Source of the DNA: Hyphomicrobiales bacterium
GTDB lineage: Bacteria; Pseudomonadota; Alphaproteobacteria; Rhizobiales; JAJFHC01
Assembly (NCBI GenBank): GCA_965227875.1
Contig: OZ245783.1
Span: 4,769,929 to 4,833,928 of the forward strand
Direction: 5' to 3'
Length of the DNA: 64,000 bases
How positions within the stretch are numbered: the stretch's first letter is position 1; every line of letters starts with the position of its first letter. Positions 6,060 to 28,744 of this stretch are shown piece by piece. Under the pieces are notes generated by a model. That model made no database searches and had not been told where the DNA came from. It saw nothing but the letters and a program-made list of their open reading frames with translations. A program made the position numbers and the translations under genes.

Positions 6060-6857
6060 ATGATCACGAGCAAGATACACGGCCCCGCTTCCGATGACAC
6101 AGGCGTCGCGCCCGTCCGGCGTCGCCTGCTCACCGGAATGTGCGCTGCGGTCTGCTCGTGCACGGCGGCCCGGGTGCCCGGCCTGTCCTCCGGGTTGGCT
6201 CTTGCCGCCCAGCGCCGCTACTGCCTCGACGCATCGTCCGCGCCATCGGCCAGTTCACTCAAGCCGCTGTCGGCGTTCAGCAATCCGGGGCTGGCGTTCT
6301 TCATCAACAAGGAAATCCACGACCTTCTGGGATCGTTCTTCAACCTGAAGTTCGATGTGGCGCTCGACCTCGCCGACCCGGGCGCCTACATGGCCGCGTA
6401 CGAAAAACCACGCGAAGGGCGTTACGGCGCCATCATCCTCGGTGACAGGTTCTTGCGCGAAAAGGGCAACGAGCCCTTCGGATTGCTGAAGACCGCGGGC
6501 ATCCTGTCGCATGAATGCGCCCACGTCTTCCAGGTCCGGTATGGCACGGACCGCCAGTTGCTCGGCAGCAAGGGCCAGGTGCGCATGGTCGAACTCCACG
6601 CGGACTACATGTCCGGCGGGTATATCGCCTGGCGGTCGGAGTTCCTGCGTTCCAAACCCGTGGAAGTCGCCGCGATGTTCTACAGTCTCGGCGACACGTT
6701 CGTGCACAGCAACCAGCACCACGGAACCCATTCCGAGCGTTTCAGGGCGTTCCGGGCTGGATATGAGGCATACTTCGAAATGAGAAAAACAAACCAGGGC
6801 GTAACAGTGGAGATGTTGGCAGAGAAAGGGCTGGATGATGTACTCGCTGCGTTTTAG
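6060..6857 (+). CDS. Hypothetical exported protein with HExxH metalloprotease-type motif
   Basis: Arg-rich, Tat-like N-terminus 'VRRRLLTGMCAAV'. Single 'SHECAHVFQ' (HExxH). No family recognised. Confidence 0.55.
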   Translation: MITSKIHGPASDDTGVAPVRRRLLTGMCAAVCSCTAARVPGLSSGLALAAQRRYCLDASSAPSASSLKPLSAFSNPGLAFFINKEIHDLLGSFFNLKFDVALDLADPGAYMAAYEKPREGRYGAIILGDRFLREKGNEPFGLLKTAGILSHECAHVFQVRYGTDRQLLGSKGQVRMVELHADYMSGGYIAWRSEFLRSKPVEVAAMFYSLGDTFVHSNQHHGTHSERFRAFRAGYEAYFEMRKTNQGVTVEMLAEKGLDDVLAAF

Positions 6858-7515
6858 GCAATTGCAAGGGCTGCGCAACCTGATGGCGGCGGCGGCCCTG
6901 TGCCTGGTCGGTATGGCCGTTTCCGGCGACGCCATGGCCCAGTACCGCATCAACACCGGGTGCCCGTCCATCGACCAGCTCCCCCCGAATGCCACCGCGG
7001 CCGATCTGAAGGGATGTTTTCCGACGTCCGGTCCCGCGACGCTGCATTGCGGCCAGCTCCGCGCCATCGCGCGCATATCCGTCGGCACGCCGGAAGGACA
7101 GGTGGCGCTGAACAACTACCAGCAGCAGTGTCCCAGCACGCCGCAGGGCTCCGGCTCCACGAGCACGGTCAGCACACCGACGCCACCGGTCGTGCCGCAA
7201 GGCATTTCCGTTCCCGACGGCGTCTATCAGGGATGGCGCGGCTACACCCGCCGGAACCATGGTGTGAGCCGACGGATCTGCAAGGACAACTACCAGTTCT
7301 ACGCCAACGTGATCCAGGGCTCGATCACGTTCGAGAGCGGCGGCCATACCTGGCGCGGCGTCGTGGCGGACAACGGGTGGATCCATATCGGGCGCGAGGG
7401 TGTCTGGCCGCGGCCGAAGAACCCGACCGCCATCCAGGGGCCGGCGAACCAGGCCCAGCTGTACAATGGCTACTGCGGCTGGGGTGAGTTCAGGCTTGGT
7501 CAGAAGCTACAATAG
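6835..7515 (+). CDS. Hypothetical secreted Cys-containing protein
   Basis: Signal peptide 'MMYSLRFRQLQGLRNLMAAAALCLVGMAVSGDAMAQ'. Overlaps the upstream gene by about 20 nt. Has a Ser/Thr/Pro linker. No family recognised. Confidence 0.55.
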   Translation: MMYSLRFRQLQGLRNLMAAAALCLVGMAVSGDAMAQYRINTGCPSIDQLPPNATAADLKGCFPTSGPATLHCGQLRAIARISVGTPEGQVALNNYQQQCPSTPQGSGSTSTVSTPTPPVVPQGISVPDGVYQGWRGYTRRNHGVSRRICKDNYQFYANVIQGSITFESGGHTWRGVVADNGWIHIGREGVWPRPKNPTAIQGPANQAQLYNGYCGWGEFRLGQKLQ

Positions 7516-7541
7516 GCCGACGGCGCCCGCGTTGGCCTGCC

Positions 7542-8510
7542 CTATCGCGGACAACGAGGCGCGGACGTGACCCATTTTTCTCTCGTGACCGGCCGGAAGC
7601 CCTGGGATTCGAGCAACAGATTGACCATGGTCATCTGCGTCGACGTCGCGCAGTGCTGGACCTCGATATTGTAGTAGTTGCCGGTCTGCGCGCCCCGTTC
7701 CGCAACGAGATAGTTCGAGAGCGAACAGTCGTTCCGCGCCCGTTTCACCTGTTCGTAGATCACGTTGATGCCCGCATTCGTGAAGTGGTTGACGAGCGCG
7801 GCCGCATTGCCTTCGTTCGCGGCTTCCGTTCCCGCGAGCAGGATCGCATTGTCGCCATCCGCCAGCGATCGCGTGCGAGGATTGGGCGACATGAAGCCGT
7901 GCAGCGCGCCCGCCTTCTTGCGTTCGGCGGAGATATGCCCGCGGCCGTTTCCGTGCCCGTCGTCGTTCGTGTGAAGCGACAGGAAGAGGTTGCCGGTCCC
8001 TGCGAACTCCATGACGGCCTTGGTGTAGGACGGAGACGCCACCCCGCGGCCCGTGCATTTCACTTTCGCCGACCCGAAAGCGCGGTTGGGGTCGACGCCA
8101 TTGGGCAGAATACGTTTTTCGGCATTCTCGACGGCGACAAACCCGCCGCCATAGGCGATCGCGGAATAGACGGCGGTGTCGAAGGCGGAGTCCTCGTTGT
8201 CATGGGGCACGACCCAGACCGGACCGCGCCGCCGCGCGGGGTTGGTGACGAACTGCAGCAGGACATCGGAGCCCTTGATGGTCACCGTCTCCTCGCGGTA
8301 GCACAGCCCGCCGCACCTGAACTTCTCCAGATTGACCCGTACGTCCGGATCAGACACGCGCGCGGGATTTATGCACCCGTCCGGGACGGCAAGCGGTTTG
8401 CAGGATTGTGCGGAAGCGGTGTGCGAACCGGCCAGAGCGGTCAGGACCAGTGCGGCGCACCGGAGCAGAAAACGCGATGTCACGGGCAATCTCCGTTGGG
8501 ATTCGGCCAA
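7542..8510 (-). CDS. Secreted protein, possible M14/AstE-AspA-like zinc hydrolase
   Basis: Signal 'LTALAGSHTASAQ'. Motifs 'VVPHDNEDSA', 'DPNRAFG' and 'LSLHTND' resemble the HxxE / NR / H ligand layout of zinc carboxypeptidase-like deacylases. The assignment is weak. Confidence 0.5.
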   Translation of the reverse strand: MAESQRRLPVTSRFLLRCAALVLTALAGSHTASAQSCKPLAVPDGCINPARVSDPDVRVNLEKFRCGGLCYREETVTIKGSDVLLQFVTNPARRRGPVWVVPHDNEDSAFDTAVYSAIAYGGGFVAVENAEKRILPNGVDPNRAFGSAKVKCTGRGVASPSYTKAVMEFAGTGNLFLSLHTNDDGHGNGRGHISAERKKAGALHGFMSPNPRTRSLADGDNAILLAGTEAANEGNAAALVNHFTNAGINVIYEQVKRARNDCSLSNYLVAERGAQTGNYYNIEVQHCATSTQMTMVNLLLESQGFRPVTREKWVTSAPRCPR

Positions 8511-8669: not shown

Positions 8670-8760
8670 GGAGAGGTGGCCGAGTGGTCGAAGGCGCTCC
8701 CCTGCTAAGGGAGTAGGCGTCAAAAGCGTCTCGAGGGTTCGAATCCCTTCCTCTCCGCCA
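8670..8760 (+). tRNA. tRNA-Ser (anticodon GCU), CCA encoded
   Basis: GGAGAGG acceptor stem pairs with CCTCTCC. Anticodon stem-loop is CTCCC-CTGCTAA-GGGAG. Long variable arm (TAGGCGTCAAAAGCGTCTC), T-loop TTCGAAT, terminal GCCA. Confidence 0.92.
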
Positions 8761-8763
8761 TTT
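8744..8763 (+). repeat. attL-like direct repeat TCCCTTCCTCTCCGCCATTT
   Basis: Covers the last 17 nt of the tRNA plus 3 nt. Identical to 14425-14444. Confidence 0.85.
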
Positions 8764-8911
8764 CCCCGAAGACGTATTAGTATGAGTGATTTCAGGGTGT
8801 TAAGGATTGTGCCCTGAATGTCGGTGCCCCAAGTTGGTGCCCCAAGATTGCCACTCCCGGTCTGAAAGCCCGAGCCAACGCAGATCGGAAGTTGCCTGAA
8901 AGGCAGACGCA

Positions 8912-9757
8912 ATGGCCGCTGATGATGCAGAACTGGCAAGGCGCAAGAGTTTAACCTTCAAGGAGGCCGAGGGCTTGGTGCCTCTCCCCTCGCAACTAAA
9001 CCTGCGAAAAACGAGCCCAACCCTCAGAGCGCGGCTGTACGGCGTTGTCCATGATCGCCTGTTGAAAGATCGGGACAACTACTCGGCGAACTTGCGCGAA
9101 AAAAGCCTCGCCGTTATGCGCCACTACTGCATCAACAAGCTCGGCATGATGGCGGACGAACTCCCCCGTCATCGAAGCAAATGGCTGGAGTACGCGAAAG
9201 CGAACTATCAGGCAGATGACTACGGGAAGGTGTTTGACTTCACTCAGATCTTCTTGAGGTTAATGCAGGAAGAAGACCTGTCGCGGCAGGTATCCCATAT
9301 ATTGCAGGATGAGCGAGCAGCGTACCGACTGGTCGATGGCGACACCATAATGCCGATGTCCTCGGAGGAAGAGGGAGCGGCTTTGAATTCTGCATTAGGC
9401 GCCCTTGAGGCGGGCGAATTGGTGGGGCCGCGCAAGCACCTCGTTACCGCTGGGGCAAGATTGACTGAGGGAGACTATGCGGACAGCGTTCGGGAAAGTC
9501 TCCATGCCGTCGAGTCGCTGGCACGGTCCAAGACTGGCAAGAGCAAGTTTTCGGACGCACTGCGAGAACTGCACAACCAAATCCCCATGCACGGCTCGTT
9601 CAGAGCAGCCCTAGAGAAGCTCTATGGTTATGCAAGCGATGAGCCCGGGGTAAGGCACTCGAACTCGGAACAAGGAGAAGCCAAGGTAACAGAACGTGAT
9701 GCTCTGTTCGTCCTTGGGGTCTGCGCCTCCTTCATAACGTACCTACTTTCAGCCTAA
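8912..9757 (+). CDS. AbiJ-like protein (AbiJ-NTD4-type N-terminus, HEPN-type C-terminus)
   Basis: N-terminal 'LTFKEAEGLVPLPSQLNLRKTSPTLRARLYGVV' fits the remembered AbiJ_NTD4 pattern (F-x-x-R/A-x-G...Q...LRN-x-LW). C-terminal 'GDYADSVRESLHAVESLAR...LYGYASDEPGVRHS...ERDALFVLGVCASFITYL' fits the AbiJ HEPN-like tail. Confidence 0.55.
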   Translation: MAADDAELARRKSLTFKEAEGLVPLPSQLNLRKTSPTLRARLYGVVHDRLLKDRDNYSANLREKSLAVMRHYCINKLGMMADELPRHRSKWLEYAKANYQADDYGKVFDFTQIFLRLMQEEDLSRQVSHILQDERAAYRLVDGDTIMPMSSEEEGAALNSALGALEAGELVGPRKHLVTAGARLTEGDYADSVRESLHAVESLARSKTGKSKFSDALRELHNQIPMHGSFRAALEKLYGYASDEPGVRHSNSEQGEAKVTERDALFVLGVCASFITYLLSA

Positions 9758-9793
9758 TGGCGTGCTGCCAGAATGGCAGAAAGGCAGATAGAA

Positions 9794-9880
9794 GGTCGCT
9801 GCGCTCGACTGTGTCTAGCTGGTCGGGCTGGTCACCCTCCATTGGCTCGTATGGTTCGCCGTGACTTATAGTGGGTCGCC
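9794..9880 (+). repeat. Repeat module A, copy 1
   Basis: About 80% identical, in the same orientation, to 11027-11113. Shared core is GGTCGGGCTG.TC.CCCTCCATTGGCTCG. Confidence 0.8.
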
Positions 9881-10050
9881 GAGAGGCGCTGTCCGTCGGA
9901 GCGGGCGGGTTATGCTGCCCATCATCACCCCGCCACTGTGCTGGTTTCCCTGAGGCGTCTGGAGGCCATCTGTGTGACGATACTCGGGGCCGTTTTCCGG
10001 TGGCCCGCATAGCGGGTCACAATCGGGCGGACCTGTGTGGCTGCCACCGG
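9881..10050 (+). repeat. Repeat module B, copy 1
   Basis: About 70% identical, in the same orientation, to 10846-11010. Shared blocks are GCCCATCATCACCCCGCC and ATACTCGGGGCCGT..TCCGGTGG.CCGCAT. It ends 4 nt before the PLD-like gene stop. Confidence 0.75.
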
Positions 10051-10054
10051 ACCG

Positions 10055-10774
10055 CTATTGCTTAAAGTCAACGGTGCTGGATGCCCAAAGCCCCTCATAG
10101 GTCTGCTGAACCGCTGCAAATGTATCAGTGATCTCTGTCAGCGTCGTCGGCGCTTTCTTCGCGCCATCCTTGAATGAGGCGCCGGACTGGAAGCAACGGG
10201 CTTTGTCGATGAGGACGAAGCGATCATGGAAGTTCGCGGCCGAACGCACCTCCAATGAATGGCCGTACTGCTGAGCATAGGCTGTCGCTGCCGGGACTAA
10301 TGTGGCCTTCCTTTCTCTACACAGAAGTCGGACTGGAACGCTCTTGTCGATGTGAGGAATGTAGCGCGTCACGAACTCCGCATCCAAATAGGGATCGACG
10401 AACAGGACATCGGCTCGGGCACTCTCAATGACATTCCTAACGCCATCGAAGTAGTCGAACACCATCCCCCCATCGACGGCCAAGCCAGTTGGTCCACCAA
10501 TGTTCCGTTGGAGTCTCCAACGAGCCGCTCGGAGAAGTCGGCGGATTTCTACCTCGCTCGTGTAGCTCGTCAACCGGTCATAAAGGCCCCCTATCGCGGG
10601 ACCGATTGGCTTCGACAGAGGGGTCGGCAAATCCATGAAAGTGGCTTGCACACGGCCCAGCCAATCCAAGGTTGCATCATCATCATTGTCCATCTGGCCC
10701 AAAGCCGGTGATGTACGGATGATGTCTTCAATCTCTACTAACAGCTGCCTTTCGTCCAAGAACGCCTCCTCCAT
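10055..10774 (-). CDS. PLD-like (HKD-variant 'HDR') domain protein
   Basis: C-terminal 'VLFVDPYLD...VRLLCRE...FHDRFVLIDKARCFQSGASFKDGAKK' is a single phospholipase-D/nuclease-like repeat in which HDR replaces HxK. The N-terminal ~110 aa are unknown. Confidence 0.6.
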   Translation of the reverse strand: MEEAFLDERQLLVEIEDIIRTSPALGQMDNDDDATLDWLGRVQATFMDLPTPLSKPIGPAIGGLYDRLTSYTSEVEIRRLLRAARWRLQRNIGGPTGLAVDGGMVFDYFDGVRNVIESARADVLFVDPYLDAEFVTRYIPHIDKSVPVRLLCRERKATLVPAATAYAQQYGHSLEVRSAANFHDRFVLIDKARCFQSGASFKDGAKKAPTTLTEITDTFAAVQQTYEGLWASSTVDFKQ

Positions 10775-10845
10775 CTTCCATACGCTTTGTACCGGTCCAA
10801 CAAAGCTTATAAAGCGACCGCAACGCCTTGGCCAAGTGTCCCGCT

Positions 10846-11010
10846 AAGAGGCGTCGTCCGACAGCGCGGAGTGGCTCGCCCATCATCACCCCGCCTCTGC
10901 GCGGACTTTGCAGAGTCGGCTGAACGCCATCGGTGCGGCAATACTCGGGGCCGTCGTCCGGTGGTCCGCATGGAGGGGCACATTGGGACTGGTCCGATGG
11001 TGCTGCCCGG
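10846..11010 (+). repeat. Repeat module B, copy 2
   Basis: See copy 1. It lies 71 nt upstream of the PLD-like gene start. Confidence 0.75.
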
Positions 11011-11026
11011 CTCGGGTAGCTAGGCC

Positions 11027-11113
11027 GGTCGCTCCGCTCCCGCTGCTCTGATCGGTCGGGCTGATCGCCCTCCATTGGCTCGCTTGGCTCGCCCTGAGTC
11101 ACAGTGAGTCGCT
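11027..11113 (+). repeat. Repeat module A, copy 2
   Basis: See copy 1. Here A follows B, the opposite order to copy 1. Confidence 0.8.
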
Positions 11114-11210
11114 GACGGCAATGTTACAGTTTCAGGTGGGGAGACAATGCGGGCAAGCCTAACGGGCCTGCACAGGCTTCTATGAGGCTCCTGGGGGCCT
11201 TTCCTTGGGG

Positions 11211-11259
11211 CGGGAGATTGGCCCTCGGCTCCTCTTCTCCCCATCCCCTCGGTGGTTAC
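11211..11259 (+). repeat. Direct repeat C, copy 1 (flanks serine recombinase)
   Basis: CGGGAGATTGGCCCTCGGCTCCTCTTCTCCCCATCCCCTCGGTGGTTAC. Matches 12351-12399 at 47 of 49 positions in the same orientation. Weaker similarity extends about 15 nt upstream. Confidence 0.85.
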
Positions 11260-11457
11260 CTAGGACGGCCACACTATGCCGACTTGGCGTTGCCGCCCCG
11301 TGCCCGGCCTGTGCAGATAGACCCTGTTTCCCCGACGCGATGGATCGGCCTTGCGGTCTAGGCTTGGTGGCACGGGCCTGCGGTCAGGGCTTGAAGTCCG
11401 TGCCGTACCTAACCGCCTTCGGCCACTGATTCTATCTCAAGAGCGAGGGGTGCAGCC

Positions 11458-12012
11458 CTAAGTCGCCAATGCGCGATAGACGCTGCGCTCGCTGATGCCA
11501 AGCTGAGTGGCGATGGCTGTGCGGGTCACGCCTTGGTCTGCCAGCGACTTGATGGCGTCCCGTTGGGCCATGGCCTTAGGCTTCCTCCCTGTGTACTTCC
11601 CTTGCGCCTTGGCCTTCTCAATCCCGGCCCTCTGCCTCTCCAGCATCATGGTCCGTTCAAACTCAGCGAAGGCCGCGAACATGGCAAGCTGTAGCTTCCC
11701 TGTGGCCGACTTGGTGTTGATCGTCTCGCCAGCGAAGTCGAGTATGCGTAGCCCAATCCCCCGCTTCTCTAGGTCGTCCACAAGGGCGAGGAGGCTGCGA
11801 AGGTCTCTGGCGAGCCTGTCCATCTTCGTCACCACAAGCGTATCGCCCTCGCGGAGATATCTCAGGGCTTCGTCAAGCTGGTCCCTCTGTGAGGCCCCTG
11901 AGGCGTGTTCCTCAAAGATGCGCTCGCAGCCTGCCGCCATGAGTGCTTCACGTTGGGCGTCCAGTCCCGCTACTTGGTCAACCGTCGAGGTCCGTGCGTA
12001 GCCTGTGAGCAT
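11458..12012 (-). CDS. Small serine recombinase (resolvase/invertase family)
   Basis: 'MLTGYARTSTVDQ' holds the catalytic Ser motif. Also 'LVVTKMDRLARDL' and a C-terminal HTH 'GVTRTAIATQLGISERSVYRAL'. ATG at 12012 has AAGGAAGG 8 nt upstream. The ORF is open to 12039. Confidence 0.9.
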   Translation of the reverse strand: MLTGYARTSTVDQVAGLDAQREALMAAGCERIFEEHASGASQRDQLDEALRYLREGDTLVVTKMDRLARDLRSLLALVDDLEKRGIGLRILDFAGETINTKSATGKLQLAMFAAFAEFERTMMLERQRAGIEKAKAQGKYTGRKPKAMAQRDAIKSLADQGVTRTAIATQLGISERSVYRALAT

Positions 12013-12350
12013 AAGGCAATCCTTCCTTTGGTCTGCCATTAGGTTCTAGACCTTGGTTTGATGACATGACAAAAGGTGGAAGTCAACCCTAATGGCAGAC
12101 TTAATGGCTGCGGACCCTGACAGCATCAAGACCCTGCCAGAACCTTGCCCTATTGGCAGTACGGGGCGGCTTCGAGCGATGACACTGGACGGCACCCCCC
12201 GGTGTTGGAAAACGTTGGGGCGCTGGACAGTGCGAATGGCGCTGCGAAAACGTGCTGGCGGGGCCTATGGGGAAACTCGCCCATTGCTACGTAAAAGACG
12301 ACCACTCGAATGAGCGACCCGTCAGCAGCTACTCGGGGTTTCCTTAGTGT

Positions 12351-12399
12351 CGGGAGATTGGCCCTCGGCTCCTCTTCTCCCCTTCCCCTCGGTGGCTAC
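12351..12399 (+). repeat. Direct repeat C, copy 2
   Basis: See copy 1. The spacing of 1140 bp encloses the recombinase gene. Confidence 0.85.
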
Positions 12400-12508
12400 T
12401 TCGGGCCGATCTGTACGGTGACTTCATGGTCACTTTGATCATTGCGACAAGGCGCGGCATGAAGACGACCGCAACGCTAGGAGGGAGAGGAGAGATGGGT
12501 CTTCCCCT

Positions 12509-12523
12509 CCCACACAGTGTGGG
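12509..12523. promoter_or_regulatory. 15-bp perfect palindrome CCCACACAGTGTGGG
   Basis: Read directly. The arms are too close for a hairpin loop, so it is more likely a dimeric protein-binding site. Confidence 0.35.
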
Positions 12524-12526
12524 GAC

Positions 12527-12612
12527 CTCTATGGCTACTTAGTGTCGCGACTCTATGTATGCTACCAATAGACCGCTCATAGCCCCTTGAAAACACTCAA
12601 AGTCTCAACTCA
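12527..12612 (+). repeat. Repeat D, copy 1
   Basis: About 75% identical to 12669-12752. Each copy contains the sub-motif CTC(T/C)ATG(G/TAT)GCTAC twice, and the block CCCTTGAAA.C.CTCAAAGT. Confidence 0.75.
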
Positions 12613-12668
12613 GTGTTTTCTGCGGCCCTTCCAGCGGTCTTCACCGTGTCGCAGCCTTGAGGGATGGT

Positions 12669-12752
12669 CTCCATGGCTACCTGGGGGACCCTCTATGTAT
12701 GCTACTTATTAACGCCGCGTAGGCCCTTGAAATCGCTCAAAGTGCTAACTCA
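12669..12752 (+). repeat. Repeat D, copy 2
   Basis: See copy 1. It ends on the stop codon of the small ORF at 12750. Confidence 0.75.
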
Positions 12753-12971
12753 AGCCAATCTAGCGGCGGCGTTCCGCTGGTCCTCAATGAGCGCTTCGAG
12801 CCACGGTTTTAAGTCGGCTCCGCGTCGCCAGTCCCTCAGGAAGTCCGCCGTCTCGTAGTCGGGCAGGAAGTCTGGCGCAAAGGCGACGGCTGCGGTCAGT
12901 TCCTTCAGGTCGGCGGGGCCGATCTTGCTCAGGTCAGTGGCCATAAGGTCGCGGTCCTGATCGGTCATCAT
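12750..12971 (-). CDS. Hypothetical 73-aa protein translationally coupled to the integrase
   Basis: Its ATG (12969-12971) overlaps the integrase TGA (12968-12970) as ATGA. Acidic, no family recognised. Confidence 0.45.
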   Translation of the reverse strand: MMTDQDRDLMATDLSKIGPADLKELTAAVAFAPDFLPDYETADFLRDWRRGADLKPWLEALIEDQRNAAARLA

Positions 12972-14389
12972 TGGTCGGTGTCCTTGTGTTGGGCGAGGGA
13001 TTCGGGTGGAAGCTGGACGGCTTCGACGCAAGGACGCATGGCTTCAGGTGGCGTCTTGCCGGGGTAGTGACTCATGGTGAGGTGGAGCATTTGCTTGATG
13101 CCGCCGTCACTATGGCCAACCACATCGGCAATAACCCAAGGTGTGTATCCCGCTTCGGGGTTCGCCATTTCGTCTCGGGCCTTGAGGATGAACCACCTGC
13201 GGAACGAATGGAAATCGACGTTGGACTTCGCCTTGTCGTTTGGCCTTTCATCGACTCCAATGTTGCATCGGTATCTGCTGAAGCGCTTCGAGGCAGGATC
13301 GGAACGGCTGTCCCTTGACAGCGGCACGGGAGGCAGTTCTTCAATAAGGTAGTCCGTGGGCCGCTTACCTTCGATGCGACGATCTACGATGGCCACAAGG
13401 GCGCTGTGTACGGGAATGCGCCGCTTGGCGTTCTCAGTCTTGCCAGCGGGGATGCTGAATATGCCACCCTCGCAATCGGACACCCTAAGTTGGCATATCT
13501 CCTCAATCCTCATGCCGCTCAGCGCTGCAATGCGCATCAGGTCAGCCAGAATGGGCGGTGCGGGGCCATAGATCAGGGTCGCTAGCTCAGCGTCCGTGTA
13601 AGGTCGTTTGCCACCGTCTGGCTCCCCTTCATGGGCGACACGTCGCGGCGGCGATGGGAGGGCCAATCCGCGCCACGGGCTTTCGTGTTCAATGTGCCCC
13701 TGCTCCTCCATCCACTTCCAGTACTCACGGAGGAAGCCCAGGTAGGTGCCCGCCCTGTTCCGCGATAGCTTTCCTGCAAGCTCCTCCCGAATAAACCTTT
13801 TGGCGGCACTGCGGTCCAAGGCCTCAACGGTCGTGTGTAGGCTGTTCCGCTCTAGCCATTTGGCCAGCATGTCTAGGACGCGGGAGAAGTCCTTTGCGCC
13901 CTTGATGGTGTAGCTCTTGTGCGCCTTGAAGGCGTCTGCAAGGTAGTCGATTGGTGTCGCCCGTCCGCTGATCACCTGCCAGATTTCCTTTGCCCTCTCC
14001 TCCCCGTAGTCCTCCTCCACTTCGCGGACCAGATCGGGGATGGCGGCATTGGACACTTGCATGGGCATTGAGTAGTTGAGCCGGATGCGCAGAGCCTCGG
14101 CGTTGATTGGATCGCCCGCGTCAAGGGACTTCTGTGCGGCGCTGAGGATGCCCTTCAGCGTCGCCACCACGGGCCACTTCCGCTCGTTCGCTGCCCGAAG
14201 GTCTGCCGTGCCAAGTGATTGCTTCAGGAAAGTCTTACCAATGATCGGGACAAGCCGCTTGGGCACCCTGACCCGCACTCTCCATTGCTGGCCGTGCCAC
14301 TCTAGGTATTGCCGATTGCTGGTCACGCTTGCCCCGTTTGTGCCCCACCACAGTGCCCCAGCTTGGAGCGTAAACTGCAATAAAGTCAA
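12968..14389 (-). CDS. Tyrosine recombinase / phage-type integrase (DUF6538-like N-terminus)
   Basis: N-terminal 'YLEWHGQQWRVRVRVPKRLVPIIGKTFLKQSLGTAD'. Catalytic region 'LSGMRIEEICQL', 'HSFRRWF', 'VGHSDGG...MSHY'. There is no ATG at the 5' end, so the start is TTG 14389 or GTG 14326 (uncertain). Confidence 0.88.
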   Translation of the reverse strand: MTLLQFTLQAGALWWGTNGASVTSNRQYLEWHGQQWRVRVRVPKRLVPIIGKTFLKQSLGTADLRAANERKWPVVATLKGILSAAQKSLDAGDPINAEALRIRLNYSMPMQVSNAAIPDLVREVEEDYGEERAKEIWQVISGRATPIDYLADAFKAHKSYTIKGAKDFSRVLDMLAKWLERNSLHTTVEALDRSAAKRFIREELAGKLSRNRAGTYLGFLREYWKWMEEQGHIEHESPWRGLALPSPPRRVAHEGEPDGGKRPYTDAELATLIYGPAPPILADLMRIAALSGMRIEEICQLRVSDCEGGIFSIPAGKTENAKRRIPVHSALVAIVDRRIEGKRPTDYLIEELPPVPLSRDSRSDPASKRFSRYRCNIGVDERPNDKAKSNVDFHSFRRWFILKARDEMANPEAGYTPWVIADVVGHSDGGIKQMLHLTMSHYPGKTPPEAMRPCVEAVQLPPESLAQHKDTDQ

Positions 14390-14424
14390 CAGGTTCTAAC
14401 AATGAAGATGCGGGGGAGAGTGCC

Positions 14425-14444
14425 TCCCTTCCTCTCCGCCATTT
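14425..14444 (+). repeat. attR-like direct repeat TCCCTTCCTCTCCGCCATTT
   Basis: Exact copy of 8744-8763. It lies 36 nt from the integrase 5' end. Confidence 0.85.
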
Positions 14445-14640: not shown

Positions 14641-16002
14641 TCAGTAGGGCCGACGGATCGAGAGACGCTCGTAGTGCGTGGACCCCAGCATCCCGTTTTC
14701 CGGATACTCGCTGATGCGCACAGAGTCCGACTGGTTCCCGCCCAGCAACCTGATCTTTCCGTCGCTGGCGCCCGTCCAGAAACCCACATGGCCGCCGATG
14801 ACCGCGCCGCCGCTCGATCCCGAACGCCGCCGGAACACCGCGATGTCGCCTTCGCGGGGGTCCCCGGTGACATCCGTGCCCCAGCCGCTGTCGTGCCAGG
14901 ACATCGCCCACTTGTTGTCCGTCCCGTTGAGGCCGGCCTGCTCGACGCAGTAGTTGACGAATGACGAGCACCACGCGGTTTCGTCGGGATACGCGCCACC
15001 GTTCGTCGTCGCGTGGTACATGACGATTCGCGGGTTGTGCGCGCTGCCCGCGATTTCCCTGACGCCAAGCTTCATTTCCGCGTAGGCCACGTCTATGGGC
15101 CTGTCGTGGGTCGCCTCGATCGGGAAGCCGCCCGCCGACGGACGCAGGAACGCCCCATGCATGAAACCGTCGGCGACGCCGTCGCCCTCGAGGTCGACTT
15201 TCACCCAGTCCCCCGAACGCCCGATGGCCGAAACGATGGCCCCTTCCGGCAGACTCCCGCTGTCGGCATATTCGGTTCCTGGGCCCTTTCGGACCTTGAG
15301 GCCCGACCGCGCGGTGACCTCCATGAGGACGACCGTGGACGACAAGGTCTCCGGCGCCTCCCCGTCGAGGCGGAACTGCCCGAATTCGGCGAAGGCCGGG
15401 CTCACGATATTGCCGTCATAGGTGAACGCCCCGCCCGGCCAGGTCTTGTGAAGGTACTTCTGGAACACCGCCCAGCGGTCGGTCTTCAGCATGTCCCGCG
15501 TGCCCGACCATCCGGTCGCACCGGCGAGCCACGCAAGGTCGACGAGTTCCTTCTTCATCATGACTGTCGCGACCGTGCCCGAACCGTAGATCCCGACCCG
15601 GTAGTCGTTTCCAAGTGCGGCACGGACCTCCTCGAAATAAGGCACGATCCTGTCCAGCTCGCTCTGGCGGAAGTAGTCGTGGTCGACCGCGAAGTAGATG
15701 GCCGAGCCTTCCGGCTGCTCCAGTCCGCGCGCCAGTTGAAGCGCCCTCTTCGCGTCCGCCCTGCCGCTCTGCGCGTCGAGGTCGTCGATGTGTCCACCCG
15801 CCCCGCCGCGCTGCTGGAACACCACCGCGATGGCGAGGTTCGCCGCGGTGAGGGCCGCCGCCTCCTCCGGCTCGAGACGCTTGGTCGGCAAGTTGTTGCT
15901 GTTGCGGTGATTGTAGTAGCGGATGACCGTCTTGACCCCGCGTGCAGCAATGTCGTCCGCGTTGTCGGCTATGTTCATGGGAACGTCGATTGCGTCATAC
16001 AT
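14641..16002 (-). CDS. Multidomain peptidoglycan hydrolase: DUF1906 (GH25-like) + SH3 + TIGR02594/CHAP-like
   Basis: 'GVKTVIRYY...AIYFAVDHDY...YRVGIYGSG' (DUF1906/Rv2525c-like). 'GLKVRKGPGTEYADSGSLPEGAIVSAIGRSGDWVKV' (SH3b). 'DETAWCSSFVNYCV...GDIAVFRR...GHVGFW...LLGGNQSDSV' (TIGR02594 NlpC/P60-CHAP-like). No signal peptide. Confidence 0.85.
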   Translation of the reverse strand: MYDAIDVPMNIADNADDIAARGVKTVIRYYNHRNSNNLPTKRLEPEEAAALTAANLAIAVVFQQRGGAGGHIDDLDAQSGRADAKRALQLARGLEQPEGSAIYFAVDHDYFRQSELDRIVPYFEEVRAALGNDYRVGIYGSGTVATVMMKKELVDLAWLAGATGWSGTRDMLKTDRWAVFQKYLHKTWPGGAFTYDGNIVSPAFAEFGQFRLDGEAPETLSSTVVLMEVTARSGLKVRKGPGTEYADSGSLPEGAIVSAIGRSGDWVKVDLEGDGVADGFMHGAFLRPSAGGFPIEATHDRPIDVAYAEMKLGVREIAGSAHNPRIVMYHATTNGGAYPDETAWCSSFVNYCVEQAGLNGTDNKWAMSWHDSGWGTDVTGDPREGDIAVFRRRSGSSGGAVIGGHVGFWTGASDGKIRLLGGNQSDSVRISEYPENGMLGSTHYERLSIRRPY

Positions 16003-25993: not shown

Positions 25994-26581
25994 ATGAACA
26001 GGTTTTCAGCGGTTTTGGCGGCCGTCGCAGCCAGCCTCTTTCTTGCGGGATGCATGGTCGAGACCGGCACGTTTCTGTCCGATCCCTCCGCCGGGTCCGC
26101 CGACGAACGGCTGATCGGCAACTGGCGGCCGGCCGACCCGGAGAAGGAAGACAACGGCTCCCTCGTCGTTTCGCGCCGGGACGGCGGACCCCGGGGCACG
26201 CTCGACGTCACGCTGGTCTCGCCGGATCCGAATGAAAAACCAGGTCGCATGACGGTCTGGACGACGAAGATCGGGAAACTCAGCTTTCTCAACGTCAAGG
26301 GTGAGGACCCTGACGGCGACGACGACCTGGCCACCGTGGTGGCCTACCGGTTCGCCGGGGCGGACATGCTCGAAATCGGCCTTCTCGACACCAAGGCATT
26401 CGCGGAACTGGTTGAAGCCGGCCGTCTGCAAGGCAAGGTCACGCGGAGTTTCGGTATCACGGGCGTCAAACTGACGGGCTCTCGCGAAGCGCTGATCCGG
26501 ACGCTCCGGAGACCGATCACCGACGGGCTCGTGTCATTTAAAAACACGTCAAACGTGCTCAGGATGCGAAAATCCAACTAG
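25994..26581 (+). CDS. Hypothetical lipoprotein
   Basis: Signal plus lipobox 'MNRFSAVLAAVAASLFLAGC'. No family recognised. Confidence 0.65.
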   Translation: MNRFSAVLAAVAASLFLAGCMVETGTFLSDPSAGSADERLIGNWRPADPEKEDNGSLVVSRRDGGPRGTLDVTLVSPDPNEKPGRMTVWTTKIGKLSFLNVKGEDPDGDDDLATVVAYRFAGADMLEIGLLDTKAFAELVEAGRLQGKVTRSFGITGVKLTGSREALIRTLRRPITDGLVSFKNTSNVLRMRKSN

Positions 26582-26800
26582 ACCGGTTGCAAATTCCGGT
26601 AACCGCACAACCCACGTACATAGAAGCGTGCCAAAAATGTCACGGCACGCTCAAAATCCTTAGTCTCCTGAAAACTTCATGCCTTCAAACTGTTGCAGAT
26701 ATTCGGACAACTTTGCAGACTTCTGGCAGGGGGGTGCCGAGACTTCTTTGAAGTCGGCAACATCGGCTCGAGAATTGGGGGAACATTCGTGCTCGTCGTC

Positions 26801-28744
26801 ATGTCGTGGAAACGTGCCGCGTTTCTGCTCACAGCCGGATTGGGGCTTGGCATCACACCTGCTCTTTCCCAAGAGGTGCTGCTGAACGGTGTTTCCCTGG
26901 GAGGTCCGATTGTCGCCGGTCAGGTCGCGATTCCGGACAATGGGCTTCTCAAGATCGAGAATGGAGCCAGCATCACCAACAACGGCGTCACCGTAATCGA
27001 CGCTGTGGACGGCTCCACGATCAACATCGACAACCTGGGCACGATCAACTCAACGGCCGGTGACGGCGTCAATGTCCTCGGCTCGACCCTCGTCCAGAGC
27101 AACTCCGGTACCGTCACCGCGAGTTCTTCCGGGATTGCCGCGCACTACATTACCAATCTTGTCAACTCGGGCACCATTCTCGGCACGAATTTCAACGGGG
27201 TATACCTACAGCCCGGCGTTGGCGTCATAACAAGCATGACGAACACGGGAACGGTCGCAAGCACATTCGGATGGGGCATCAATGCGCCAACCATTACGAA
27301 CCTGGTAAACGCCGGCGTCGTATCCGGAAGCAGCCGCGGGATCAGTGCAGACCTCATCACCAATCTCGTCAACTCCGGCACGATCACGGGAACAAACGGC
27401 GAGGCTATCAACACCGCTAGCCTCGTGAGCCTCACCAACACAGGAAGGATTACCGGGCAGAACGGCAATGCGGTTTCCGCGACAACAATCACGAGTTTCA
27501 CAAATGCCGGTACCATCATCGGCAGCAGCGGCACGGCTATTCGTGAGTTTGGCGCTGCAGACACGGTCCTGACTCTTCTTCCCGGCTCGAACATACAGGG
27601 TCTGGTCGACCTCGGCGGAGGCGTAAACACAGTTGTCGTTGGAAATGGCCTGAGCACGGCCACGACCTTTGCCGCGGCTCCCGACATTATAAATTCGTCG
27701 GGCCAGCCTTTCGCGCTTGCCGGCACGACGTTACATGTCGTGGACCCGACAGGGTTTTCAATGACCGGCAGTCAGCTTGCCGACACGACTGGAGCAATTT
27801 CGGACGTTCTTGCAGGTCAATTCGGCGGCGGATCCAGTGGTTCGGTTCAGGTTGCGATGGGGGACGGCACTGGGTTTTTGGTGACGCCGGTTTCCGACAA
27901 CGGTTTGACCGCTCGCGCATGGGCCGAGGTTTTCGGCGGTTGGAAAGACAGGGCCGGCGATGGTGCGGACGTCGGCTCCACGAACATTTTCGGCGGCATT
28001 GTCGGCGGTATTGAAATGGCGCGCGCCGACGCAGGCCGCATAGGCGTTTTTGTCGGCGGATCTGCCGGTGAAGTCGAGGTGGACAACAACGCACAAGATA
28101 TCGATACGGAAACTGTGTTCGGTGGCCTTTACGCGAGTCATGACAACGGGGTGATACGCCTTGATGCTGCAGTGACCGTCGGGCTCGCCGATTACGACTC
28201 CGACCGTTTCGTGGCAAACAACACGGCCGGCGGCGGAATACAGGTAGCCCGTGCGGAGTATGACGGTGTTTTCGTGTCTCCGGAGCTTACTGTATCGACA
28301 TCAATGACGATGGGACCTGCCACACTAAGGCCGTCGCTCAGAGTCCGCTATGCGGGCCTCTGGCTGGACAGTTATTCCGAATCCGGCTCCTCGTCCAACC
28401 TCTCTGTCGACGACCGCGAGGTGCATATCCTTGAAGCCCGCGCTCAGGTTTCCCTGCCGATGACAGTTGCGAGCGGCGAAAACGGAACGCTGACAACCGA
28501 AATCAGGACAGGCATTGATGTTCGCACGAAAATCGGTTCCGATCGCGTCGATGCCGTTCTTGTCGGACAACAGCTGTCGTTCGACTCTGGTGGTGACGAC
28601 GAGGTGCTGACGGCGTTCATCTCCGCGGCGTTCGCTATGGCTTTTGCCGACGCACTGACCGTATCGGGAGCGCTCGAAGGTGGCTACGGCACCGACGAAA
28701 CCGCGCACGCAATCGCTCGCTTGAGAGCGACTGTCGATTTCTGA
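26801..28744 (+). CDS. Autotransporter (type Va) with beta-helical passenger and C-terminal beta-barrel
   Basis: Signal 'MSWKRAAFLLTAGLGLGITPALSQE'. Repeated '(I/L)TNLVNSGT(I)xG(T/S)' passenger motifs. The C-terminal ~280 aa have an alternating beta-strand pattern and end 'ARLRATVDF'. Confidence 0.85.
   Translation: MSWKRAAFLLTAGLGLGITPALSQEVLLNGVSLGGPIVAGQVAIPDNGLLKIENGASITNNGVTVIDAVDGSTINIDNLGTINSTAGDGVNVLGSTLVQSNSGTVTASSSGIAAHYITNLVNSGTILGTNFNGVYLQPGVGVITSMTNTGTVASTFGWGINAPTITNLVNAGVVSGSSRGISADLITNLVNSGTITGTNGEAINTASLVSLTNTGRITGQNGNAVSATTITSFTNAGTIIGSSGTAIREFGAADTVLTLLPGSNIQGLVDLGGGVNTVVVGNGLSTATTFAAAPDIINSSGQPFALAGTTLHVVDPTGFSMTGSQLADTTGAISDVLAGQFGGGSSGSVQVAMGDGTGFLVTPVSDNGLTARAWAEVFGGWKDRAGDGADVGSTNIFGGIVGGIEMARADAGRIGVFVGGSAGEVEVDNNAQDIDTETVFGGLYASHDNGVIRLDAAVTVGLADYDSDRFVANNTAGGGIQVARAEYDGVFVSPELTVSTSMTMGPATLRPSLRVRYAGLWLDSYSESGSSSNLSVDDREVHILEARAQVSLPMTVASGENGTLTTEIRTGIDVRTKIGSDRVDAVLVGQQLSFDSGGDDEVLTAFISAAFAMAFADALTVSGALEGGYGTDETAHAIARLRATVDF

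Follow-up and report, generated by a model that had tools for sequence, protein, structure and literature searches.

A probable small integrative island with two recombinases and candidate anti-phage genes at tRNA-Ser(GCU) in a Hyphomicrobiales bacterium

The DNA analysed here, a 64-kb stretch of contig OZ245783.1 from a Hyphomicrobiales bacterium (referred to as the window), contains at 8764-14424 a 5.7-kb segment that is very probably a small integrative genomic island, inserted at the 3' end of a tRNA-Ser(GCU) gene by its own tyrosine integrase. Five genes are found in it, namely the integrase, a 73-amino-acid (aa) open reading frame (ORF), a small serine recombinase and two cargo genes, and the island is well supported as a member of a recurring, still unnamed family of small islands from alphaproteobacteria of soil and sea. 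Site-specific integration that regenerates the tRNA 3' end had been proposed in a first-pass annotation of the sequence, and the intact tRNA, together with the same signature in relatives of the integrase, upholds that proposal.

Target tRNA, attachment repeats and the related islands

The target and the two attachment (att) sites are located as follows, with lengths in nucleotides (nt).

8670-8760, forward strand: tRNA-Ser(GCU), the intact integration target (ARAGORN; Rfam tRNA, 59 bits)
8744-8763, forward strand: attL copy of the 20-nt direct repeat, exact match
14425-14444, forward strand: attR copy of the 20-nt direct repeat, exact match, after which comes a T-run of the kind usual in native tRNA 3' flanks

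The tRNA-Ser gene, with anticodon GCT in the DNA, is the sole tRNA that ARAGORN detects in the 64-kb window, and Rfam agrees. The repeat TCCCTTCCTCTCCGCCATTT consists of the last 17 nt of this tRNA, including the encoded CCA, plus TTT. The earlier observation that these 17 + 3 nt recur at 14425-14444 is accurate: the two copies at 8744-8763 and 14425-14444 are exact and form the single pair in 64 kb, with no third copy in the window at up to three mismatches, and two matches appeared in none of 100 dinucleotide-preserving shuffles. The DNA immediately 5' of the attR repeat is the upstream region of the integrase gene, which lies 98 nt from the repeat. Composition also sets the interval apart. 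Its G+C content is 58.8% against 63.4% in the rest of the window, below that of every non-overlapping 5.66-kb window, and its tetranucleotide distance is 0.384, compared with 0.132 +/- 0.022 (maximum 0.183) for the other windows; the suspicion that the interval is more A+T-rich than its flanks was therefore justified, and the k-mer bias proposed as a check deviates as well. The cargo genes are the most A+T-rich part (G+C 0.553-0.558), and the backbone genes range from 0.597 to 0.627.

According to the proposed mechanism, recombination of the island's attP with the 3' end of tRNA-Ser(GCU), serving as attB, would have inserted the island. Because attP would have carried the same 20 nt (17 from the tRNA end, then TTT), the tRNA would have come out of integration intact at attL, with a partial copy of it at attR. 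Excision would yield an attP junction reading ...GGGGGAGAGTGCC-TCCCTTCCTCTCCGCCATTT-CCCCGAAGACG..., and the repaired attB would join the tRNA end to TCTTTCTATGC, such that an empty site would carry the tRNA followed directly by TTTTCTTTCTATGC. From attR inwards, the backbone comprises paired GTGCCCCA motifs, the integrase, the coupled 73-aa ORF, a non-coding stretch and the serine recombinase with its site array; the rest of the island is cargo, made up of two single-gene anti-phage candidates.

The same organisation was sought in a comparison set of 80 metagenomic loci found by integrase alignment, and related integrases (29-59% identity) show it. Among the 12 loci with an opposite-strand tRNA downstream of a related integrase, 10 carry an exact 17-22-nt repeat of the tRNA 3' end. 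These repeats lie about 120-150 nt upstream of the integrase start, and the islands that they delimit are 4.4-9.2 kb long, have the integrase at the tRNA-distal end and sit at tRNA-Ser(GGA), tRNA-Gln(CTG) and tRNA-Ala. Two metagenomic contigs that end inside tRNA-Ser, L110 and L111, add two more cases with repeats of their own (ATCCCTCTCTCACCGCCAC and TCCCGCTCTCTCCGCCAT). Across the family the repeat sequence differs with the target tRNA, and these family-wide tRNA repeats are strong independent evidence of site-specific integration. Because 10 of the 12 loci show this layout, the tRNA-distal, inward-facing integrase can be regarded as a family trait. In five more distant members of the integrase family (L061, L071, L073, L094 and L103; 33-37% identity) a tRNA-Gln or tRNA-Ser immediately precedes the integrase on its own strand, and therefore both arrangements occur in the wider family.

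Two Mesorhizobium loci show islands of this kind. In Mesorhizobium kowhaii (L026), the order is that of the window, with tRNA-Ser(GGA), cargo, recombinase, small ORF, integrase and attR arranged over a 4.4-kb island that ends in an exact 17-nt repeat of the tRNA 3' end; the recombinase is 81% and the integrase 55% identical. In Mesorhizobium sp. PAMC28654 (L107, 6316-9706), a remnant persists at tRNA-Ser(GGA), at the same chromosomal site as in L026, cut by an IS3-type element just past the res-like site described below, and genes for AbiEi/AbiEii, nSTAND3 and UvrD_C proteins lie beyond the cut.

Recombinases, their candidate sites and the cargo genes

The genes of the island and the candidate recombinase sites are listed below.

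8824-8844, forward strand: two GTGCCCCA motifs 13 nt apart (starts 8824 and 8837), candidate arm-type sites on the attL side
8912-9757, forward strand: cargo gene 1, 281-aa AbiJ-N-domain protein (AbiJ_NTD4, E 6e-9; PDC-S32, E 1.6e-52; G+C 0.558)
10055-10774, reverse strand: cargo gene 2, 239 aa (PDC-S05, E 4.8e-17; G+C 0.553)
11458-12012 (ORF to 12039), reverse strand: small serine recombinase, 184 aa (Resolvase, E 3e-40, positions 3-145/145; HTH_7, E 2e-6)
12033-12159, strand not assigned: CCTAWTGGCAG half-sites in a res-like array that lies upstream of the recombinase start region and reaches into it
12750-12971, reverse strand: 73-aa ORF, translationally coupled to the integrase through an ATGA overlap of its start with the integrase stop codon
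12968-14326, reverse strand: tyrosine integrase, about 452 aa (N-terminal DUF6538, E 6e-11; Phage_integrase, E 2e-8, above the Pfam cutoff)
14340-14360, forward strand: two GTGCCCCA motifs 13 nt apart (starts 14340 and 14353), candidate arm-type sites on the attR side

The integrase adjoins attR at the tRNA-distal end and faces inward, where the first-pass annotation had placed it, and it is intact: R272, K295, H372, R375, H404 and Y420 are invariant in an alignment of 37 homologues. Homologues number 428 at E <= 1e-20, with a best non-self match of 55% identity, and come from Mesorhizobium, Hoeflea, Nitratireductor, Aminobacter and related bacteria. The database copy of the protein (P0001, 432 aa, with a single occurrence in the collection) begins at V42 of the ORF 12968-14389, and this start cuts off the conserved DUF6538 N-terminus (QYLEWHGQQWRV). 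The annotated start of P0001 is probably wrong, since the GTG at 14326 matches the family consensus. No mention of DUF6538 was found in the literature searched.

Near both ends of the island lie the paired GTGCCCCA motifs, 60-80 nt inside attL and 65-85 nt inside attR, with the attR-side pair 14-34 nt upstream of the integrase start. Sister islands carry paired motifs with like geometry at both ends, namely GGTCCCCCA in L026 and L107, GCTCCCCCA in L110 and GGTGCCCCA or GTGCCCCA in L111. Because the motif varies with the integrase and is present in both arms, the pairs are probably arm-type sites to which the integrase would bind.

The 73-aa ORF has homologues after the integrase in eight related loci (L026, L028, L029, L034, L038, L043, L063 and L110). 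An initial homology search with it returned only itself, and an exhaustive search of 1.84 billion proteins gathered its family as 25 small, unannotated representative clusters, including the relatives P0242, P0250 and P0260. A core of about 45 aa (AAIxFALDxLxPxExxxFLxDWRxGxDLxPWL) is common to its members, a few of which have two to five copies of it. Pfam, PADLOC and NCBIfam gave no match to the ORF, and PHROG matches were insignificant (E 0.2-0.4). An AlphaFold 2 model contains four helices at a predicted local distance difference test score (pLDDT) of 66, too weak for a fold search. The protein is a possible candidate for an accessory or directionality factor.

A second recombinase, of the serine type, had also been noted in the interval, and the Resolvase and HTH_7 matches agree with that identification. 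Its translation contains the motifs YARTSTVDQ, with the catalytic serine, and DRLAR. Among solved structures, the protein comes nearest to Gin invertase (1e-32) and to gamma-delta resolvase (8e-26). The recombinases of sister islands match it at 81-86% identity, and its closest relatives (79-86% identical) occur in Mesorhizobium. Of the 45 loci with at least 5 kb of downstream sequence, 15 have a small serine recombinase on that side of the integrase.

Three CCTAWTGGCAG copies, at 12033 (reverse), 12088 (forward) and 12149 (forward), make up the array in the window. DNA homology to eight recombinase loci spans the array region and ends at 12159-12166; in these eight loci, three or four conserved half-sites are distributed over about 125 bp upstream of the recombinase gene. 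Clustered half-sites occur likewise in L026, L107 and L110. The spacing is unlike that of a three-subsite res or a hix/gix pair, and no partner site was identified. The array looks like a res-like site over the recombinase's own promoter region, at which the protein would bind. The most likely and most economical role for the recombinase would be to resolve dimers or tandem arrays of the element and to repress its own gene. In two larger Mesorhizobium elements that contain Prim-Pol/DUF3987 or AAA_25 genes and HTH_17 genes (L108, 6855-8555; L109, 6730-8558), the recombinase and site module (79-81% aa identity) lies 144 nt after a different, shorter Phage_integrase. Because the module follows a different integrase there, it appears to be portable and to move between types of element.

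The two defence-like genes recognised in the first-pass annotation match the PADLOC candidates PDC-S32 and PDC-S05. The PDC-S32 match covers the full length of the AbiJ-like protein (residues 12-280 of 281), and the PDC-S05 match is limited to residues 103-218 of 239, corresponding to the C-terminal part of the model. The 239-aa protein also gives a VPA1262_N_dom match below the cutoff (E 6.5e-8). Its translation contains HDRFVLIDKARCFQSGAS (HxRx4Dx6SGxS), which resembles the HKD motif of PLD/Nuc proteins and may be a variant of it. An AlphaFold model of this protein reached a pLDDT of 46, too weak for a fold search, and PDB sequence searches with both cargo proteins returned nothing. Sister islands carry an Mrr type IV restriction enzyme (L076), HEPN_AbiU2 (L085), a SieB-like protein (L026), a Schlafen AlbA_2 protein with a trypsin-like protease (L068) and a DUF5343 protein with HEPN_Swt1 (L111). 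From these domain assignments, the integrase family is best described as marking small defence-carrying islands, the cargo of which appears mostly defence-like.

Repeats in the non-coding DNA

Non-coding DNA occupies 1,966 nt (35%) of the island under the gene boundaries used here. It is repeat-rich, as had been stated beforehand, and its size, about 2 kb, falls just short of the more than 2 kb given there. Within the window, four direct-repeat families (62-173 nt, about 75-88% identity) are confined to the island.

9816-9882 and 11049-11115, forward strand: repeat A, 82% identity (copy 1 against 11054-11115)
9881-10053 and 10846-11018, forward strand: repeat B, about 75% identity (nhmmer, E 1e-45 and E 6e-44)
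11187-11264 and 12328-12404, forward strand: repeat C, 84-88% identity, GGGAGA...TCTCCC hairpin-like
12551-12612 and 12691-12752, forward strand: repeat D, 77% identity, directly 3' of the 73-aa ORF
12300-12319, reverse strand: terminator-like hairpin followed by a T-run (consensus scan; this class is not above chance)

The core of repeat A, GGTCGGGCTGGTCGCCCTCC, is conserved in L026 and L107. Repeat B copy 1 is homologous to L026 14186-14046 and L107 9499-9359, and window positions 10841-11075 align to L107 9504-9265. Both Mesorhizobium loci have a single B-then-A block after the attL arm motifs, with which the second B and A copies of the window are collinear, identifying these as the backbone copy; the first A and B copies are an extra copy with the order swapped relative to that block. 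The 239-aa gene lies between the two B copies. The recombinase module is enclosed by the C copies, with copy 1 on the 3' side of the recombinase gene, and an analogous pair (family D1) is present in L026, where two D-like repeats were also seen by eye at the corresponding place. L110 shows a pattern matching the cargo-flanking repeats of the window: past the small ORF and before the recombinase site array, a 192-aa gene has on either side one copy of a 330-nt non-coding duplication (6361-6693 and 7406-7646, 74-82% identity).

Several functions were considered for this DNA and rejected. As RNA genes, Rfam at E <= 1 returned tRNA only; folding z-scores were -2.4 and -2.5 for the two strands of 12290-12750 and +0.2 and -0.8 for 10775-11457; and RNAalifold on four B copies gave a covariation term of just -1.19 on either strand. 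A protein or pseudogene origin was set aside, as tblastx matches fell in all frames on both strands and ten ORFs had no Pfam match. Repeat C as an att site decayed after tandem accretion was likewise dismissed: its alignment to attR is at shuffle level in the window and L026 (p 0.30-0.59), with p 0.02-0.03 in L110. Repeat A as a MOBQ-type origin of transfer (oriT), suggested by a resemblance of GTCGCCCTCC to the nic region of RSF1010, gave no match to the consensus NWACCNNTAAGTGCGCCCTY (PMC3832669) at up to three mismatches.

The divergence of the copies and their position around the cargo make a mosaic the best guess for the internal repeats, in which related islands would have recombined, or would have accreted in tandem and fused. 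One such route would be repeated integration at one tRNA followed by deletion.

Alternative explanations, known systems and significance

Several points weigh against an island inserted by its own integrase. No relaxase, replication or packaging gene and no excisionase of a known family was found in it with Pfam, PHROGs, NCBIfam and PADLOC, and its present mobility is therefore at most putative. Since transfer, replication and packaging genes are absent, movement between cells would need a helper, for example a conjugative element, transduction or a gene transfer agent. The integrase, the recombinase and the small ORF are singletons in a collection of 15 billion proteins. The order of the extra A-B copy is not explained by a simple fusion of two islands, the non-coding third of the island fitted none of the functions considered for it, and the defence role of the PDC-S32 and PDC-S05 candidates is predicted only. 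Homologues of the downstream neighbour (46-70% identity) were found at 24 loci, in Hoeflea, Mesorhizobium, Rhizobium, Rhodocyclaceae and others, none with a tRNA within 10 kb, and there is therefore no synteny on that side of the tRNA.

14641-16002, reverse strand: downstream neighbour, peptidoglycan-hydrolase-like (Rv2525c-like GH domain, SH3_3, CHAP)

A search of a plasmid collection with the internal 3 kb of the island gave short matches inside recombinase genes only. Elsewhere in the window, a further low-G+C stretch at 26000-28500 (0.557-0.59) holds a 683-aa ORF (26693-28744).

The same absences of transfer, replication and packaging genes could be taken to mean that the segment is the decayed, non-functional stump of a larger prophage, satellite or integrative and conjugative element that has lost most of its genes. 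The 35% of non-coding DNA with its internal duplications would fit such decay, as would the related integrases at the ends of contigs called viral in IMG/VR, the equivalent recombinase module in larger PrimPol/AlpA-type elements and L107, an island of this kind truncated by insertion of an insertion sequence (IS). Yet the two att repeats match exactly, neither recombinase is shortened or lacks its catalytic residues, tblastx (all frames, both strands) and Pfam give no pseudogene signal in the non-coding DNA, and the compact 4.4-9.2-kb layout recurs with intact ends at at least 12 independent loci and several tRNAs, which makes a stump unlikely. A reading of the interval as ordinary chromosome, with the 20-nt repeat as a chance match or as a piece of a second, degenerate tRNA, is vanishingly improbable: no point was found in its support, and it is opposed by the shuffles, by the proximity of integrase and repeat, by the strongly deviant composition and by the equal signature in a dozen related loci. 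The degenerate-tRNA possibility had been raised in advance, and neither ARAGORN nor Rfam at E <= 1 finds a second tRNA or anything tRNA-like near 14.4 kb.

A different question is whether the serine recombinase also shapes the island, with repeats and motifs serving as sites for the gain, loss and exchange of gene cassettes in an integron-like manner. The motifs concerned flank the AbiJ-like gene.

8893-8907, forward strand: TGCCTGAAAGGCAGA motif of the TGCCWGAAWGGCAGA family, just upstream of the AbiJ-like gene
9766-9788, forward strand: two overlapping TGCCWGAAWGGCAGA copies, just after the AbiJ-like gene

This proposal draws on the direct repeats around each cargo gene and the recombinase (A/B at the 239-aa gene, C at the recombinase), on the conservation of the C pair in L026 and on the L110 duplication around an inserted 192-aa gene. 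Moreover, the TGCCWGAAWGGCAGA copies on either side of the AbiJ-like gene are the only ones in 64 kb, the motif has the 9-mers CTGCCAGAA and AATGGCAGA in common with the recombinase's upstream array, and the WTGGCAG half-site is 5-10 times denser inside islands than outside. However, the likeness of the bracketing motif to the res-like region is marginal (p 0.015-0.08), TGCCWGAAWGGCAGA is absent from all 120 other loci fetched, and its palindrome, at 13-15 bp, falls short of a canonical crossover site for serine recombinases (26-28 bp in hix and res site I). Repeats of 62-173 nt and about 75-88% identity fit homologous or illegitimate recombination between related islands better, and no single backbone with differing cassettes was found. 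Cassette exchange is thus improbable, and it is quite improbable that the island works as a two-recombinase cargo platform, on which the tyrosine integrase would move the element at tRNA genes and the serine recombinase would capture, delete and exchange single defence genes via A/B, C and TGCCWGAAWGGCAGA. An apparent cassette swap between L111/L114 and L112/L113 was rejected, the sequences being identical and the gene calls alone differing.

An integrated island at tRNA-Ser(GCU) shares with classical tRNA islands, such as the P4-like ones, the tRNA 3' target, the exact repeat that regenerates the tRNA, the atypical composition and the accessory cargo. Unlike them, it has a DUF6538 integrase that is tRNA-distal and inward-facing rather than beside the tRNA, no recognisable Xis/AlpA-type excisionase, a length of 5.7 kb only and an extra serine recombinase. 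It resembles integrative mobilizable elements as a small integrated element with its own integration module and without conjugation machinery, but no relaxase domain is present in any ORF, no MOBQ oriT match was obtained and no internal att-like site is shown. Tandem accretion at a shared att site is a known route to composite elements with internal repeats. The recombinase shares with the res modules of Tn3/gamma-delta and with the Gin/Hin modules a C-terminal HTH and the catalytic Ser and Arg motifs, and with gamma-delta res a half-site array of about 125 bp over the recombinase's own 5' region. In contrast, three or four CCTAWTGGCAG copies with one inverted pair about 45 bp apart form a layout unlike a three-subsite res or a 26-bp hix/gix pair, no transposase lies in the island and no invertible segment was identified. 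A prophage or satellite (P4-like, or a phage-inducible chromosomal island) was rejected, as no capsid, terminase, primase or AlpA-type gene was found with Pfam, PHROGs and NCBIfam. An integron was rejected too: the integrase model scores 10.8 bits against a cutoff of 265, there are no attC-like repeats, and the internal repeats are direct and 62-173 nt long.

The mechanism is that of a classical tRNA-integrating island, and the layout is closest to cargo-carrying tycheposons. Tycheposons begin and end with one full and one partial tRNA, one of their ends carries a site-specific tyrosine recombinase facing inward, their hallmark gene labels include a small serine recombinase, their cargo serves defence or adaptation, and arrays form when integration recurs at one site (10.1101/2020.12.28.424599). 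What defines them is an integrase lineage of their own together with common mobility and replication genes, the replication module being optional, in marine cyanobacteria and other marine bacteria (10.1101/2020.12.28.424599). The likeness lies in the flanking tRNAs and the inward integrase, and a small serine recombinase, one of those hallmark labels, is present; the comparison is by layout only, and membership is not claimed. In contrast to tycheposons, the island has no primase, helicase or capsid genes by Pfam, PHROGs and NCBIfam, and its host belongs to the Hyphomicrobiales.

The find is well supported and fairly ordinary, and it leaves the current understanding of genomic islands unchanged. 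What it offers is a cleanly delimited, minimal defence island for which the ends, the target and candidate integrase-binding motifs are defined. DUF6538-type integrases mark recurrent 4-9-kb islands at tRNA-Ser, tRNA-Gln and tRNA-Ala in Mesorhizobium, Hoeflea and their relatives, and a small serine recombinase often accompanies them. The integrase and attP pair could be tried for tRNA-targeted integration in rhizobia, and islands of this family are useful for finding new anti-phage genes.

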